Sequence record: OL631482.1
Strand: one strand, 5' to 3'
From: Escherichia phage ECML-359
DNA: 64,000 nucleotides
Below are positions 27,896-39,362 of this stretch, in pieces; position 1 is the first letter of the stretch, and every line of letters starts with the position of its first letter. The notes beneath the pieces are model-generated. The model searched no databases, was not told the DNA's origin, and saw only the letters and a program-made list of their open reading frames with translations. Both the position numbers and the translations under genes were made by a program.

Positions 27896-28479
27896 TTACG
27901 GCATTCCTCAATAAAGGAGTTCAATGTATTTTTCTTAGTGATATCGTCATATACCTTTTTAACTTTAGAAATACGAAAAGGTACTTCAATAACCATAGTC
28001 CATAAAAATGATGCAATAAGCCCAGCGAGAGCAGTAGAAAAGCACGCACCCATTACAGCTACGGGTGCTTCATTTTTGCCTGTCAAGAAAAACCACAGAA
28101 ACGGTAAAAATAAGATTCCAGCCCAGGCATAAAACCTGGAACAAATTAACTTATCAAATTCATCACTCCAGGTACGAAATCCATATTTCTTGCTATAAGA
28201 AATTAATGGGTCTGGTGTCTGTTCTTTGAGCGGTTCTGGTTGATGCCCATTAATAATGTATCCCATTTTATATTCCTTAATTAAAAGCTCTTTCACATGA
28301 CGATTGCATCGCGACCAATCAACATTTTCCACCTTGATTCCTTCATCACCATCATCAAGGTTCGCCCAATATTTTTTGGTAATCATAAATTCATCTCTTG
28401 ATACAATTATACCTGCATTTTCTGCCCGGCGGATGAAGTTTACATCAACACCCATGCACCCGGGCTCATAAAGGGCCAT
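27892..28479 (-). CDS. hypothetical membrane protein (195 aa) with C-terminal FIEECRK
   Basis: Two C-terminal TM helices (FYAWAGILFLPFLWFFL, VAVMGACFSTALAGLIASFLWTMVI). Confidence 0.5.
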   Translation of the reverse strand: MALYEPGCMGVDVNFIRRAENAGIIVSRDEFMITKKYWANLDDGDEGIKVENVDWSRCNRHVKELLIKEYKMGYIINGHQPEPLKEQTPDPLISYSKKYGFRTWSDEFDKLICSRFYAWAGILFLPFLWFFLTGKNEAPVAVMGACFSTALAGLIASFLWTMVIEVPFRISKVKKVYDDITKKNTLNSFIEECRK

Positions 28480-29171
28480 TACCAGCCCTCCATAGGGAAT
28501 TCCAGATATACTTGAGCATTAACGCGGATTTCATTTGTAATCTTTTTAACACGGTCAGTATTACGAGACACACGACCAAACCAGCGCCACCCGTTACTTA
28601 CTGCGCGAGAACCTGTATGCCATGTCTGCCAATCAAACTGGAGCAATGTGCGGTCAGGAGCATCCCACTTGGTTAATTCATTGGACTCAATTTTTTCCAG
28701 AACTTCTTTATGCCACTGACGATAGATAAGTTCGCCTTCAGGAATCTGACTAAATTGTGCAGTTCCGGTTGCAAAATAAGTAGGACACACATCAGCGTTA
28801 ACAAGACCAAGAATATGTTCAGAATGGTAACGAGGATTATCATAATCAGGTTGCCCTGCGGTAATAAAGTGTTGACCCACCGGAATATCCGGACGTGGTA
28901 CATCGTCATGGTGATAACCTGGGATAGCAGGATACCAACCAGGCATCAGCATATGAACCCGAGAATCAAACACCAAATTATCGGGGCCATCAGTCCATTC
29001 TTTTGGTAGGTTATCAAGAAAACTGCGCGTGATTGGACCACCATGCTCATACGCAAATTCTGGATAGCAGTTAAAGAACATTGGTTCATTTTTGATTTGG
29101 TCATTTTGTACGTTATGTGCAAAACCACCAACTGCACGAGCTTGACTATTAAAAGTTTTCGGACCGTTCAT
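28479..29171 (-). CDS. hypothetical protein with 2OG-Fe(II)-oxygenase-like motif arrangement
   Basis: YHHDD (HxD), downstream His (WHTGS) and RxS (GRVS) in the order seen in 2OG oxygenases; motif-level only. Confidence 0.5.
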   Translation of the reverse strand: MNGPKTFNSQARAVGGFAHNVQNDQIKNEPMFFNCYPEFAYEHGGPITRSFLDNLPKEWTDGPDNLVFDSRVHMLMPGWYPAIPGYHHDDVPRPDIPVGQHFITAGQPDYDNPRYHSEHILGLVNADVCPTYFATGTAQFSQIPEGELIYRQWHKEVLEKIESNELTKWDAPDRTLLQFDWQTWHTGSRAVSNGWRWFGRVSRNTDRVKKITNEIRVNAQVYLEFPMEGW

Positions 29172-29230
29172 AATATTTTCCTCATTGATTGTGGGACCAT
29201 TGTGTCATAGTCCCACTTGGATGTACACAA

Positions 29231-30190
29231 TTATTTTTCGAAAGGACGAATTAAATGCTGGTTAGCTTTGAAACGTTTAACATAGTCTTCATGACCCAGG
29301 GTGTTGTACATATTAACCACTTCCTGGTAATGTTCCCAGGCATACTCGCGGAACCATCCAGAAGTAATGGAGGTGCAGACTTTTTCCAGCGCAATATTGA
29401 AGCTCACGGATGGAGAGATATTGAACTCATTGGGAACCTGCGAACGCTCCAGAGCGAGTACACATGCTTCTTCATAAACCCCTGCCAGTTTAATAATCTC
29501 AGGGAGTGCTTCAAATTTTTCACGCGAGGTCATAACTTCTGAATCATCCTTCATATAGAACTTATATGCAGGCTTATCAGCAAGCGCCACGGCCTCGTGG
29601 ATGGAGTCATGGTCAAGGGTATAGATTGTATCATTAAAGAAAGTTTTCTTGCCCACGTCTAGTTTAGGGTGACTATATGACAATGTTTCTGCCTGGCGCT
29701 GCAGCATGATTTTATGCAGTTCGTCATTAAGAACAACACCCTTATTGCGAAGGTAATTAATATGACTCATTGTCTTCAGGAAGAATGGATTGTTCTTCAG
29801 GTAACGATGAGACAGTTTAATTGCCAGACAAATATCAGGAGTCGCCCAATAGAAACCTGTAAGACGGTCTTTCTTAATATGATTTTCAGCGTATTTCAAG
29901 AGACGATAACTTGAGGTGAAATCTTCATCTTGAAGCTCACCAGTAATTTCTCGTACGTTAGTCAGGGCACGGACAATATAAGCTTCAAAATAGGTTTCTT
30001 TTCCATTGTACATACATTTAAAAGCTTGGACATCAGGGTTATCCACAGGAACATGAGCACCGAACATACGTGCTTTAAAGTGGTTCCAGGAGCCCTGGTC
30101 AGCGATAAAGTCCCAATCAGAGTTTTCAATTTTCTGACTTTCAATCAGACCAGCGTTATGTAATGCACGAGAACCAATAACTAACATCAT
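29231..30190 (-). CDS. hypothetical protein (319 aa)
   Basis: ORF track; no motif recognised. Confidence 0.55.
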   Translation of the reverse strand: MMLVIGSRALHNAGLIESQKIENSDWDFIADQGSWNHFKARMFGAHVPVDNPDVQAFKCMYNGKETYFEAYIVRALTNVREITGELQDEDFTSSYRLLKYAENHIKKDRLTGFYWATPDICLAIKLSHRYLKNNPFFLKTMSHINYLRNKGVVLNDELHKIMLQRQAETLSYSHPKLDVGKKTFFNDTIYTLDHDSIHEAVALADKPAYKFYMKDDSEVMTSREKFEALPEIIKLAGVYEEACVLALERSQVPNEFNISPSVSFNIALEKVCTSITSGWFREYAWEHYQEVVNMYNTLGHEDYVKRFKANQHLIRPFEK

Positions 30191-30206
30191 AATATTTTCC
30201 TCATTA

Positions 30207-30374
30207 GTAAAGACGAGTTACTTCATATTTTCCAAGTGCCGATTTTTTCGCTTCAATTCGTGAGGCAGCAAGATTGGCGGCCTCTAGTGAAGAAAATTGA
30301 ACCACTTGAGAAGTATTCTGTCTTACTCCACCTTGCGGGTGAGTGACAAAAACAATAAGAACATTATACATAAT
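30207..30374 (-). CDS. hypothetical small protein (55 aa)
   Basis: Own translation MYNVLIVFVTHPQGG...; not in track. Confidence 0.3.
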
Positions 30375-30381
30375 ATTTTCC

Positions 30382-30582
30382 TCAAATAATACCGTATGCG
30401 TAAATATCTCTTTTAATGCAGGAAACTACTTCTTCCAAAGAATCACAAACACGTTCTGTGGCGCCTGCGTAATCACCACTGATGGTTACTTTAATACCAT
30501 CAGAAACTTCCTGGAGATTAACCTCCAGTTGGTTGACTTTGGCTTCGTTCAGAACTTTGATTAATTCGTTTGCGATAGACAT
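30382..30582 (-). CDS. hypothetical protein (66 aa)
   Basis: ORF track. Confidence 0.45.
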   Translation of the reverse strand: MSIANELIKVLNEAKVNQLEVNLQEVSDGIKVTISGDYAGATERVCDSLEEVVSCIKRDIYAYGII

Positions 30583-30646
30583 TTTTATTCTCCTGTTCTG
30601 ATAACGCGATTGTCATCAGTTGATAGGAGTATAGTAACACAGTTTT

Positions 30647-30991
30647 TTAGACTTGTATACTGCTTCTACAATATTCTAAAAATAATTTATCGTTGTCTAC
30701 CTTATCCCAACGACGCCAAGATGGATTCCAGACCAGAGCGTTGTCACCGCAATCATTGAGCTTAAAGTGGTCGTAGTACATAGCTATATGTCTGGTTTCG
30801 TCACCAGAGAACCCCAGTATATGCTCACCGTGGGTATGATACATATGATGATGCATTGAGAGGTCGCATTTGTAAAACATCTCACGTTTACCACGAACGA
30901 ACAAGAAGGCTTGCCCATTCATATAGAATTCTTTATCTGTTTTCAAAAGATATTTGAATACCGAATCTTTATGCATAATTCCTCCTACCAC
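30647..30991 (-). CDS. hypothetical His-rich protein
   Basis: HHHMYHTHGEH cluster; start probably at MHKDSVF. Confidence 0.5.
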   Translation of the reverse strand: MVGGIMHKDSVFKYLLKTDKEFYMNGQAFLFVRGKREMFYKCDLSMHHHMYHTHGEHILGFSGDETRHIAMYYDHFKLNDCGDNALVWNPSWRRWDKVDNDKLFLEYCRSSIQV

Positions 30992-31006
30992 ATCCTTGTG
31001 ATTAAA

Positions 31007-31234
31007 TTATTTTCCTAACGAAATACGAGTAGGTTTTTTACCGAAATATTCTTCATAGGAACCATCTAAACGACCCGCTTTAGACCGACAATACGAATCA
31101 TACTTTTTGTAATAAGTCAACTCGTTATTATAACGTGGATGTCTATCAGCCATAATAATACTTAATGGCCAACCTTTGGCATAATCACGAAGACCATTTA
31201 TTTTACGAATATATCTTTTCTTTAATTTTAGCAT
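31007..31234 (-). CDS. hypothetical basic protein (75 aa)
   Basis: ORF track. Confidence 0.45.
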   Translation of the reverse strand: MLKLKKRYIRKINGLRDYAKGWPLSIIMADRHPRYNNELTYYKKYDSYCRSKAGRLDGSYEEYFGKKPTRISLGK

Positions 31235-31452
31235 GAGCTCGGGTGCCAGATTTTACCGTCAGGTTGAGCAACGAAGGTACGACCAGCTTCTTCACCATAA
31301 CAAGAGCTGTTCAGCCAGTCTTCAAGACGAACCTCACCATCATATTCGTCAAGCTCAATACCGAAATCTTGAGCGTTAGCCATATCTTTTACTTTCTTAT
31401 ACAATGCAGCCAGTTCAAGTGCTGCTTTTTCTAATTCATTAATATCAGACAT
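31228..31452 (-). CDS. small protein, member of C-terminal-Cys paralog family (ends WHPSSC)
   Basis: Fourth of four tandem small ORFs ending in SS..C-stop. Confidence 0.5.
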   Translation of the reverse strand: MSDINELEKAALELAALYKKVKDMANAQDFGIELDEYDGEVRLEDWLNSSCYGEEAGRTFVAQPDGKIWHPSSC

Positions 31453-31461
31453 TTTTATTCC

Positions 31462-31659
31462 TTAGCATTCGTAAGAGGATGATACCCAAGAGGTACCACT
31501 AATAGTAATACAACCGTTATAAAGCGTGATATGTCGTTCTAAGTCACGAACACCATCAATGTAGATATCAGCTTCTTCGCGTTCTTCTTTACAAATCTGG
31601 ATAACGTTTTCAATAGCTGCCGCGGCAGTACGGATTGCACAATCTAATTCACGAGACAT
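31462..31659 (-). CDS. small protein, C-terminal-Cys paralog family (ends WVSSSYEC)
   Basis: Start moved to MSRELD with TAAGGA SD from upstream stop junction. Confidence 0.5.
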   Translation of the reverse strand: MSRELDCAIRTAAAAIENVIQICKEEREEADIYIDGVRDLERHITLYNGCITISGTSWVSSSYEC

Positions 31660-31667
31660 ATAATTCC

Positions 31668-31949
31668 TTAACATTCAGAAGAGGAGGACACCCAACCGCC
31701 ATTTTCCAGGTCAGTTGTATAGTCATGAGTGTTAACAATAGCCCATTCAGGATGACCATGTTCTTCCCAATGAGCAAGGTCAGCTTTCAAGGCGCCAGGA
31801 GAATAATAGTCACCGCCCATACCGCGAGCAGGGTATATATTAAAATGAGTCTCATATTTGTTTGCGATTTCCTCGGCACGACGAATAGCTTTATGGATAT
31901 CATTTACTGCGTTAGCCAGTTCTTTATTTTTACGGTAATCATTCATCAT
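31668..31949 (-). CDS. small protein, C-terminal-Cys paralog family (ends GGWVSSSSEC)
   Basis: Shares helix AIxx(A/S)EEIA..Y and G(G/A)WVSSS with neighbours. Confidence 0.5.
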   Translation of the reverse strand: MMNDYRKNKELANAVNDIHKAIRRAEEIANKYETHFNIYPARGMGGDYYSPGALKADLAHWEEHGHPEWAIVNTHDYTTDLENGGWVSSSSEC

Positions 31950-31958
31950 AGCGTTTCC

Positions 31959-32249
31959 TTAGCACATTGCCGAAGAGGAGACCCAAGCACCAACTGTAAC
32001 GACACCGTTTTCAACTTCGCCGCCGTTGTTTTCAATTTCATCTTTAAACCACTGGGAGCACTCATAACCGACAGGATAATATGTACGGCCTGAACCATAA
32101 TCACCGGTACCGAATTGGATACCATATTCATCTGCGATTTCTTCACAGTGTTTTTCAATTTCAGAGGTCTTATTTAGAAGAGAATAGATAGCTTTTTCTG
32201 CAGATTTCTCATCATAATACTTGGGGATAGCAATTTCAATTTTATTCAT
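31959..32249 (-). CDS. small protein, C-terminal-Cys paralog family (ends GAWVSSSAMC)
   Basis: First of the tandem array; ATG overlaps upstream stop. Confidence 0.5.
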   Translation of the reverse strand: MNKIEIAIPKYYDEKSAEKAIYSLLNKTSEIEKHCEEIADEYGIQFGTGDYGSGRTYYPVGYECSQWFKDEIENNGGEVENGVVTVGAWVSSSAMC

Positions 32250-33492: not shown

Positions 33493-33496
33493 TTAA

Positions 33497-33511
33497 GGGG
33501 GCTTTGCCCCC
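33497..33511. terminator. GC-rich hairpin GGGGGctttGCCCCC, possible bidirectional terminator
   Basis: Perfect 5-bp GC stem with T-rich flank on plus. Confidence 0.45.
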
Positions 33512-33517
33512 TTTATC

Positions 33518-34489: not shown

Positions 34490-34572
34490 TTTATTCTCCA
34501 GTGTTTTATTTGGTAACTCAGTATGGAATCATTATGCCTTAAAGCAGGGGGCTTGTATACCCCCTTTTTGAA

Positions 34573-39119: not shown

Positions 39120-39362
39120 TTATTTTAAGTCTTCCAGACGTTTTTTCATCTTGGTGCCGTTCTTAGCAATCTCGCCTGCATCAGAACAAAGAGCAAGGAG
39201 AGCTTTAACTTTACCCTGGTCGCCTTTAAAAGATGATGCATCTACTGAATCAGCAAGTTCTTTGATACGTGCAAACAGGCGCTCTGCTTCAGCAAGGGCT
39301 TGACCAAGTTTAACTTCCATACCATGGGAAGATTCTGTTATAAATGTTTGATAAGTTTTCAT
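39120..39362 (-). CDS. internal-protein-like virion protein with capsid-targeting N-terminus
   Basis: Starts MKTYQTFITESS. Confidence 0.65.
   Translation of the reverse strand: MKTYQTFITESSHGMEVKLGQALAEAERLFARIKELADSVDASSFKGDQGKVKALLALCSDAGEIAKNGTKMKKRLEDLK

Follow-up and report, generated by a model that had tools for sequence, protein, structure and literature searches.

Within a 64,000-nucleotide stretch of Escherichia phage ECML-359 (sequence record OL631482.1; hereafter the window), four adjacent small genes, here called P1 to P4, encode proteins that share a Trp- and Ser-containing C-terminal tail ending in Cys. They belong to a phage-restricted family of ancient paralogs that is under purifying selection, has a strongly conserved tail (G-W-x-S-S-S-x-x-C) and keeps a conserved gene order: the family genes lie upstream of, and on the same strand as, a gene for a protein with Pfam domains DUF7277 and DUF7275, which we predict to be a Pol-beta-type nucleotidyltransferase. 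This synteny is the main clue to function and was absent from a preliminary description of the DNA; it indicates that the tail genes and the DUF7277+DUF7275 gene probably constitute a conserved two-component module. Our favored reading, which we put forward tentatively, is that the tail proteins are functionally coupled to this putative enzyme through the tail.

The first lead came from two metagenome contigs in which distant family members are followed, one or two genes downstream, by a DUF7277+DUF7275 gene of ~300 codons. In the window, the corresponding gene lies downstream of the array on the same strand, its start 1038 nt from the P4 stop; the product matches DUF7275 (expectation value, E, 5e-76), DUF7277 (E 4e-26) and phrog_2141 (E 3e-147). 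In Pseudomonas phage phiPsa300 the DUF7277/DUF7275 gene comes immediately after the last family gene. The link was probed in three independent ways, starting from family members, from enzyme genes and from viral contigs containing the family pattern YGMGGTYY. All the family-seeded loci had an enzyme gene downstream on the same strand, namely those of the window, vB_EcoM_RZ (RZ), SP18, RB69, phiPsa300, an Erwinia jumbo phage, Providencia phage PSTCR6 and six distinct metagenome places (seven loci, because L008 duplicates L009). The enzyme-seeded loci of Gram-negative myoviruses (Shewanella and Aeromonas phages, phAPEC8, an Acinetobacter phage, Salmonella jumbo phage Munch and Klebsiella phage KP13-26) likewise had one to six tail open reading frames (ORFs) directly upstream in six cases out of six. 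Among the 24 pattern-seeded contigs, the enzyme gene was downstream in 17, six were cut at the locus edge, and in one (L039) an unrelated 229-residue ORF is followed by the end of the available sequence. The PSTCR6 enzyme gene is unannotated and crosses the origin of the circular record (L004 4926 to L052 752); it was found by joining the ends (hidden Markov model, HMM, E 3e-109).

At 12 distinct loci, 110 nt or less separate the end of the nearest family gene from the enzyme start. The arrangement holds in T4-like, rV5-like, Otagovirus and jumbo phages, and the flanking genes vary: nrdD in Aeromonas, dexA in Shewanella and a helicase gene in Acinetobacter phages, Rnl1 and Pnkp in jumbo phages, and e.3 in T-even types. 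T4 itself has neither component at the syntenic site; there e.2 and e.3 are immediate neighbors (L051 12653-13320). The block missing from T4 measures 3.8 kb (window 28479-32249) and contains a 230-residue ORF, the enzyme gene, small ORFs and the four tail genes. No third conserved component was found among the fetched loci: the 230-residue ORF occurs downstream of the enzyme only in six T4-type loci, and in other phages the ORFs that follow the enzyme gene gave no match to Pfam. Because the other ORFs of the block are limited to a few related phages, the universal unit consists of the tail genes and the DUF7277+DUF7275 gene. Jumbo phages have the module set amid Rnl1, Pnkp and PTH2 genes, and in Shewanella, Providencia and Gordonia phages transfer RNA (tRNA) genes directly adjoin the module or the enzyme locus; the neighborhood thus hints at RNA or tRNA biology.

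The pattern W-x(1,2)-S-[ST]-x(0,3)-C-x(0,1) at the C-terminus occurs in four of 703 window ORFs (stop-to-stop, ≥40 residues), and these are P1 to P4 and no others; the chance expectation from composition-matched random tails is 0.068. P1, P2 and P4 match phrog_899 (E 3.7e-23, 1e-19 and 1.9e-9, respectively) and P3 matches phrog_4882, both clusters being of unknown function. Word-indexed protein searches with P1 and P2 gave only relatives of 65-99% identity, so that an exhaustive profile search was needed to recover the family. A profile built from the four paralogs and close relatives, searched against 1.8 billion representative proteins, gave 82 matches at E ≤1e-3, of which 81 are 68-145 residues long and the weakest is a protein of 4315 residues. 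Eighty of the small matches were new in that search; the tail is terminal in 75 of them, 47 have a single Cys, and the median isoelectric point (pI) is 4.6. The family consensus runs from an N-terminal helix (ending AE-x-IAD-x-x-G-x-x-F) and a hairpin (x-AYGMGGTYYP) through a variable acidic stretch to GGW-x-SSS-x-x-C at the very end.

Tail conservation, which the preliminary description had noted as a C-terminal Cys after a Ser-rich stretch, extends nearly without exception to about 190 distinct relatives. Of 192 distinct HMM-positive sequences, 184 end in Cys or in Cys plus one residue, and these have Trp at -7 in 176 cases, Ser at -4 in 182, Ser at -3 in 171 and Gly at -9 in 117. A strict form of the tail, W-x-[SPA]-S-[ST]-(x-x)-C with at most one residue after it, is present in 170 of the 192, in 75 of the 80 representatives and in all of P1 to P4; the counts among the 192 are partly circular because the HMM includes the tail, although most of the score comes from the body. 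The terminal Cys is the only conserved Cys in the family.

The motif search in other phages that had been suggested found the same tail on family members across many phages. Several hundred phage records carry orthologs under the label 'hypothetical protein' (two tblastn searches gave 284 and 327; a third, with protein P0060, found nothing). T4-like carriers infect Escherichia, Klebsiella, Enterobacter, Edwardsiella, Aeromonas, Acinetobacter, Yersinia, Shewanella and Providencia; the others are Erwinia and Salmonella jumbo phages, rV5-like phages and Otagovirus phages of Pseudomonas. When a viral contig collection was probed at the DNA level for YGMGGTYY, all 24 loci recovered lay within family ORFs; in 185,579 bacterial and archaeal genomes the probe hit two loci, neither of them in a family ORF. 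Judged by these data, the family is confined to phages.

The tail also occurs on bodies that have no match to the family body. One is a 45-residue mini-protein from the same type of array (L007 6316-6453, ending DDWTSWEGSSC); the others are proteins of 139 and 145 residues in KP13-26 and a related contig (L015 2885-3304 and 3314-3751, ending HAWCSSSMTC and HGWISSSICW). In some family members (P4, P0031, P0081, P0087 and P0089) the motif is doubled. The tail thus behaves, as judged from these sequences, as a portable module. T4 Tk.1 (L051 5347-5535, 62 residues), which has no tail, gave a weak match to the helix-plus-hairpin region (LSFEISSEYGDAETYY; E 6e-4 in a small search) and may be a distant body-only relative or a chance match.

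The case for an enzyme rests on an alignment of 15 homologs of the 319-residue window protein, 27-73% identical to it. Residues G6, S7, D25 and D27 are invariant and E69 is at least 90% conserved. The G-S...D-x-D arrangement corresponds to the hG[GS]...DhDh signature, with E69 as the third carboxylate, and thus resembles Pol-beta-type nucleotidyltransferases. The conserved C-terminal domain is rich in His, Asp and Glu (SHR-x-x-K, FF, DHD-x-x-HE, EE-x-x-V-x-ALER and KVCTS-x-x-SGW). Two Acinetobacter phage records label the homolog 'putative nucleotidyltransferase'.

A candidate relative was RlaP (PF10127), of which T4 NrdC.11 is a member, an RNA-ligase-associated Pol-beta nucleotidyltransferase of RNA repair (PMC12776372, PMC7824862). 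The partner resembles RlaP in having an apparent N-terminal nucleotidyltransferase region and a C-terminal helical domain and in lying beside Rnl1 and Pnkp in jumbo phages. It is, however, not a member of PF10127: the 15 homologs gave no match at E up to 5, and hhalign against NrdC.11 returned a probability of 0.07%. RlaP, moreover, has no reported small-protein partners.

The locus itself belongs to a T4-like background. The 1.7-kb region containing the array is 94-97% identical to the Escherichia/Shigella phages pEC-M719-6WT.2, RZ and SP18 of Gaprivervirus, a T4-like genus of the Straboviridae. The array occupies an accessory region between e/nudE/e.2 and e.3/e.4/e.6 plus tRNA genes. ORFs and translations bore out the four adjacent reading frames of the preliminary description, with their C-termini and exact coordinates; the genes lie on the minus strand (Table 1).

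Table 1. Positions of the tail genes, their junctions, the partner gene and the intervening ORFs in the window
Feature	Position	Strand	Description
P1	31959..32249	-	96 residues; subtype B; hairpin motif GDYGSGRTYYP; tail GAWVSSSAMC
P1/P2 junction	31950-31958	-	equivalent to the P3/P4 junction
P2	31668..31949	-	93 residues; subtype A; hairpin ARGMGGDYY (family consensus AYGMGGTYYP); tail GGWVSSSSEC
P2/P3 junction	31660-31667	-	equivalent to the P3/P4 junction
P3	31462..31659	-	65 residues; subtype without Gly-rich hairpin; tail TSWVSSSYEC
P3/P4 junction	31453..31461	-	TAA stop overlapping AAGGA Shine-Dalgarno site, then ATG
P4	31228..31452	-	74 residues; subtype D 'double motif', internal DWLNSSCYGEE and terminal WHPSSC; C-terminus KIWHPSSC
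Four small ORFs between array and partner gene	30204..31234	-	unrelated; outside the conserved module
Intervening ORF 1	31234..31007	-	75 residues; basic; phrog_7065
Intervening ORF 2	30976..30647	-	109 residues; phrog_9796
Intervening ORF 3	30582..30382	-	66 residues; phrog_14244
Intervening ORF 4	30371..30204	-	55 residues; phrog_20278
DUF7277+DUF7275 partner gene	29231..30190	-	319 residues; predicted Pol-beta-type nucleotidyltransferase

The family HMM scores are E 5e-23 for P1 and 3.7e-26 for P2. The longest reading of P3 starts at 31674 and has 70 residues; we prefer the start at 31659 because a Shine-Dalgarno site, an end-to-end match to the 65 positions of phrog_4882 and the RB69 and SP18 annotations all agree on it. 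Residues 6-70 of the 70-residue reading align with phrog_4882 positions 1-65 of 65 (E 3.2e-36), and the family HMM gives E 6e-5 to 2e-4. The window proteins are direct members of the two clusters, which include RB69ORF137c, RB69ORF136c, RB69ORF139c and Aeromonas 44RR ORF064c: P2 is 52% identical to RB69ORF137c, and RB69ORF136c is the P3 ortholog. The N-terminal helix that was said to be common to the first three proteins is shared by P1 and P2 (BLASTP E 2e-4) and is weaker in P3 and P4, which enter the family through profiles only (P4 by its phrog_899 match, P3 by the family HMM at E ~1e-4). A 152-residue antisense ORF (31635-32093, plus strand) spans P1 and P2; it is most likely a shadow ORF that reflects the strong constraint on the minus-strand genes.

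P1 to P4 are, from their substitution patterns, genes under purifying selection and not a DNA repeat. Compared with RZ and SP18, the ratio of nonsynonymous to synonymous substitution rates (dN/dS) lies between 0 and 0.16 for all four (P1, 0-0.06; P2, 0.04-0.10; P3, 0-0.16; P4, 0.06-0.16); against RB69, where dS is saturated, it is ~0.3. All six Ser codons occur at the three Ser positions when 71 distinct tails of other phages are compared (AGY, 16-28%), and selection therefore acts on the amino acids. An alignment of the four units, as had been proposed, finds inter-unit DNA similarity of just 10-33 bp, confined to the tail codons, stop and Shine-Dalgarno site; together with the Ser codon usage this places the constraint on the protein. 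Conservation restricted to the junctions, which had been named as the finding that would speak against the family, is thus not what was observed, protein-level conservation extending beyond the junction.

The alternation of stop, Shine-Dalgarno site and ATG that the preliminary description pointed out can be read directly from the sequence. The three junctions have the form TG[CT]-TAA-GGAA-N5-6-ATG, each of the four starts has a Shine-Dalgarno site, and the fourth stop, that of P4, overlaps the start of the next gene (ATGCTAA). A TAA-GGA stop context is rare, occurring in four of 139 minus-strand window ORFs of at least 50 residues, three of which belong to the array. TAAGGA follows the tail in 15 of 71 distinct family tails of other phages; it is a recurrent, non-obligatory overlap of a stop with the next Shine-Dalgarno site. 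Minimum-energy folds of all three junctions (31950-31990, 31660-31700 and 31453-31495, minus strand) contain a helix of just 4 bp in which UCCU/CCUC from the tail Ser codons is base-paired to AGGA in the Shine-Dalgarno site of the following gene. Such pairing could sequester the site and enforce translational coupling; we regard it as a curiosity. Promoter and terminator scans near the array gave nothing above shuffled expectation, and no late promoter (TATAAATA) lies within 4 kb of it. Upstream of the array, minus-strand intergenic gaps contain two G+C-rich hairpins (33495-33513 and 34546-34565; AAGGGGGC...GCCCCCTT and AGGGGGC...CCCCCT) that look like terminators or RNA-processing sites.

The preliminary description took the array for the product of unit duplication carrying its own coupling signal. 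As a recent process this is not supported by the relationships of the four proteins. The best BLASTP matches of P1 are type-B proteins of phAPEC8, KP13-26 and Aeromonas 44RR (E 1e-13 to 4e-17), and those of P4 are type-D proteins of KP13-26, Aeromonas 44RR, phAPEC8 and Shewanella phages (E 1e-18 to 4e-12), which share the 'double motif' DW-x-SS-x-C-YGE...W-x-x-SSC. P2 matches YGMGG-type proteins and P3 only its RB69 ortholog, and the window neighbors are missing from the paralogs' hit lists save for marginal tail-only matches to P3 (E ~0.02-0.05). Because each is nearest to its own subtype in distant phages, and because inter-unit DNA similarity is limited as described, the four are ancient paralogs rather than recent duplicates.

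Most genomes hold several subtypes together. In SP18 and many relatives, a fifth tail paralog (L002 5472-5699, SP18gp138; 75 residues, ending GFWFNSSMSC) lies between the P3 and P4 orthologs, at what is the 31452/31462 junction of the window; it explains why alignments broke into two pieces, with ~246 extra bp, when the DNA was first searched. Within the genus, copy number is thus polymorphic, as judged from these genomes. In RB69 the P1 ortholog is split into RB69ORF139c, which has the helix and hairpin and ends SQWYEK, and RB69ORF138c, which has EIENNGGDV...GAWVSSPALC (L003 3679-3985); this copy looks frameshifted or decaying.

Of the four intervening ORFs, all in function-unknown PHROG clusters, homologs occur among the fetched loci only in close relatives, plus one in a Providencia phage; RZ carries just the first. 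This phrog_7065 ORF begins within the final codons of P4, at the ATGCTAA overlap, and is 66% identical to an ORF of PSTCR6 (L004 4-303) located ~3.4 kb upstream of the PSTCR6 tail genes. Elsewhere in the window, an 80-residue ORF (39120-39362, minus strand) starts MKTYQTFITE, which we take to resemble the capsid-targeting sequence of T4 internal proteins; it is presumably an internal head protein gene in a polymorphic internal protein region.

Structure prediction for the monomer, which had also been suggested, gave a confident fold. The AlphaFold2 model of P2 from the 82-sequence alignment has a mean predicted local distance difference test score (pLDDT) of 94.7, none of the five models falling below 89, and supersedes an unstable 12-sequence run (one model at pLDDT 82, the other four at 46-58). 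A helix (residues 2-32) leads into a hairpin (strands 35-41 and 44-49 with a Gly-rich turn between them), two helices (51-63 and 71-74), a strand through the invariant Trp86 (84-88) and a short helical turn containing Ser89 and Ser90 (89-92), with Cys93 terminal. The topology is alpha-beta-beta-alpha-alpha-beta, and the last residues are the least confident (block mean pLDDT 68). The members of the P1-P4 family are accordingly predicted to be small acidic proteins with an N-terminal helix, a Gly-turn beta-hairpin (AYGMGG or DYGSG, then TYYP), an acidic linker, a Trp-containing strand and an S-S-x-x-C turn.

Comparison with characterized protein families placed the family nowhere. The four proteins have no Pfam match below E 0.01, and 82 aligned relatives gave just scattered single-member Pfam matches (best E 0.0022). 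There was no NCBIfam match, PADLOC gave single-member chance matches only, and a PDB sequence search with P1 found nothing. A similarity of P4 to Phage_186_Fil (Pfam) and to a 'cell division inhibitor' PHROG (E ~0.05) was rejected as chance, since six other type-D proteins did not show it. Zinc-ribbon, treble-clef or other Cys-based metal sites would call for three to four conserved Cys/His ligands, which are absent; with a single Cys in 47 of 80 representatives, an intramolecular metal site, one of the chemistries first proposed for the tail, is unlikely. Lipid attachment, another of those proposals, is at odds with hydrophilic N-terminal helices and with a Cys that is the last or last but one residue, which fits neither an N-terminal lipobox nor a CaaX box. 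Neither a CxxC motif nor a thioredoxin fold is present, as would be expected of thioredoxins and glutaredoxins. No HEPN family of Pfam was matched, the HEPN four-helix fold differs from the predicted one, and R-x(4-6)-H is absent. A literature search found no paper on the family, the tail motif or DUF7275/DUF7277, and the link between tail and enzyme has no record in the searchable literature and databases, where the PHROG clusters are catalogued without function, motif or structure. By exclusion, the family falls outside every known kind; tests of membership in known kinds failed or were indecisive, which demonstrates no new mechanism.

How, then, might tail proteins and enzyme work together? 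Several proteins with one invariant terminal motif are encoded upstream of one enzyme, and the motif is therefore most simply the feature that the enzyme recognizes; the G-W-x-S-S-S-x-x-C tail would be the element by which the P1-P4 family engages it. Most likely, the small proteins would serve as acceptors that the enzyme nucleotidylylates, or modifies by a related group transfer, at the hydroxyl of a tail Ser or at the thiol of the Cys; failing that, they could be interchangeable specificity or regulatory subunits directing the enzyme. The occurrence of the tail on unrelated bodies fits recognition or an acceptor tag, and several substrate-like paralogs per enzyme fit a many-substrate enzyme better than a one-to-one inhibitor. 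The module may act in phage-host conflict, possibly around tRNA or RNA repair. In its most specific form, the proposal is that of covalent loading: the tail would be a portable acceptor tag, on whose Ser or Cys the enzyme puts a nucleotide or nucleotide-derived group, in several carriers. The module would then be a phage-encoded protein-tagging or carrier system with paralogous carriers, used in infection and possibly countering attack on tRNA or translation. We consider covalent loading, taken by itself, doubtful.

Known enzyme-acceptor pairs offer partial parallels. GlnD acting on PII, and CitX/MdcG acting on acyl carrier proteins, are nucleotidyltransferase-fold enzymes that modify a Tyr or Ser of an alpha/beta protein of ~100 residues. 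The tail proteins are like these acceptors in size, acidity and alpha/beta nature, the candidate acceptor residues being the hairpin Tyr-Tyr and the tail Ser-Ser; they differ in being phage-encoded and multi-copy, and no sequence or fold similarity was found. In the type VII toxin-antitoxin system MntA-HepT, a minimal nucleotidyltransferase polyadenylylates a Tyr of its small HEPN partner. Here, too, a predicted G-S...D-x-D enzyme is encoded beside small proteins with a hydroxyl-rich motif near the C-terminus. Unlike HepT, however, the tail proteins have no HEPN fold or R-x(4-6)-H, there are several of them per enzyme, the enzyme has a large DUF7275 domain and the carriers are lytic phages; Pfam-based searches detected no homology to MntA-HepT. 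The N-terminal fold of YefM/Phd/RelB antitoxins is also among the closest known systems.

Several observations weigh against functional coupling through the tail. DUF7277/DUF7275 loci of Streptomyces, Gordonia and Brevibacillus phages and of one Vibrio phage have no detectable tail family member nearby; the enzyme is therefore not strictly dependent on tail proteins. T-even-type genomes have one to four unrelated ORFs between the array and the enzyme gene, and in the accessory regions of phage genomes a conserved gene order can stem from joint inheritance instead of a common function. Because AlphaFold builds Trp and the first Ser into a beta-strand, the tail may have a structural role and not be a free tag. 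The 319-residue protein and its homologs match no nucleotidyltransferase Pfam family, PDB chain, NCBIfam model or RlaP profile; since just a short motif and a depositor annotation stand behind it, the nucleotidyltransferase assignment holds at the level of motifs. Finally, we infer the enzyme's activity, its physical contact with the tail proteins, their modification and the biological role from sequence.

The four phages that have the enzyme and no nearby tail family member have other small ORFs next to it. Directly upstream of the DUF7275 gene of Brevibacillus phage Sundance, gp88 (L018 4156-4437) combines an N-terminal helix with an acidic tail in which EEEEYSSSYY is duplicated; it has neither Trp nor Cys and may be an analogous partner with a different tail; the Sundance enzyme has the C-T-x-x-C-SGWFRE motif common to tail-partnered enzymes. 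In the Streptomyces phage (L016 5630-5968), Vibrio phage K354 (L017 5614-5979) and the Gordonia phage (L019 4454-4747), an ORF of ~100-120 residues lies directly downstream of the DUF7275 gene. Its product has a Tyr/Asp-rich stretch followed by V-x-E-V-K-P-V-x-K or similar and no Pfam match, and may be a different conserved partner in phages that have no tail family.

The alternative that survives best, though we think it unlikely, is that the small proteins are stand-alone host-takeover or anti-defense proteins, each paralog having its own host target that the terminal Cys or Ser contacts (for example by capping an active-site metal or thiol), with the enzyme merely co-inherited. The proteins are small, acidic (median pI 4.6) and phage-restricted; copy number varies, with four in the window, five in SP18 and a frameshifted copy in RB69; and they sit in the T-even e-to-tRNA accessory region, traits that are typical of counter-defense genes. 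That the enzyme occurs without the family in Gram-positive phages points the same way. Chance co-inheritance is nevertheless insufficient to explain why, despite unrelated flanks, the family genes have the same order and strand with respect to the enzyme gene in T4-like, rV5-like, Otagovirus and jumbo phages. The subtypes, moreover, are ancient and conserved, with low dN/dS, and are not diversifying fast, and PADLOC gave no meaningful match.

It seems improbable that the tail proteins act in the manner of antitoxins, inhibiting or regulating a toxic nucleotidyltransferase of the MenT/AbiEii or MntA-HepT type and so restraining or timing a host-shutoff enzyme. Small genes upstream of a ~300-residue enzyme with an N-terminal nucleotidyltransferase motif and a helical C-terminal domain do recall the MenT/AbiEii layout. 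Up to six paralogs per enzyme are, however, unlike any toxin-antitoxin pair with one partner each, the proteins have no DNA-binding domain, the genes reside in strictly lytic phages and not in addiction modules, and the universal feature is the tail rather than the body. Slightly less probable again is the chemistry of the preliminary description, in which the terminal Cys residues of paralog homo- or hetero-oligomers would form a thiol-disulfide or metal center. The Cys is invariant, type-D members have two W-x-S-S-x-C motifs, and the co-occurrence of subtypes in a genome would permit hetero-oligomers. On the other hand, 47 of 80 representatives have a single Cys, there are no His/Cys partners, CxxC or thioredoxin-like fold, structural disulfides are disfavored in cytoplasmic proteins, and the equally invariant Trp and Ser would be left unexplained.

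Tandem small ORFs beside one enzyme, with the S-x-x-x-C spacing typical of lanthionine rings, also recall precursors of ribosomally synthesized and post-translationally modified peptides (RiPPs), whose Ser and Cys a modifying enzyme would cross-link. This we consider very improbable: the C-terminus is the most conserved part and the middle is variable, the reverse of leader-core logic; the whole chain is predicted to form a compact fold (pLDDT 94.7); no LanB/C/M, radical-SAM or protease gene was found among the Pfam-annotated neighbors scanned; and there is no export signal. The last alternative, that the units are a DNA or RNA junction element of stop and Shine-Dalgarno site with chance ORFs, could appeal to the junction-confined DNA identity and the pairing of Ser codons (UCCU) with AGGA at three junctions, but we judge it already refuted by purifying selection on all four ORFs, profile matches at E 1e-19 to 1e-36, hundreds of homologs, the use of all six tail Ser codons and a confidently predicted fold.

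If the tail proteins and the DUF7277+DUF7275 enzyme do act jointly, they would represent an undescribed two-component module maintained in large virulent phages of many lineages that infect Gram-negative bacteria, among them T4-like, rV5-like, Otagovirus and jumbo phages. The results also give a handle on hundreds of 'hypothetical protein' annotations, in the form of a defined motif, a partner gene and mutable residues (the Cys, the Ser pair, the Trp and the D-x-D). Even if the family were merely co-inherited with the enzyme, it would stand out for a compact fold, predicted with confidence and without a solved relative, and for the unusual invariance of its C-terminal tail. Should the tail prove to be a covalent acceptor, it would be a new kind of protein modification in phage biology.

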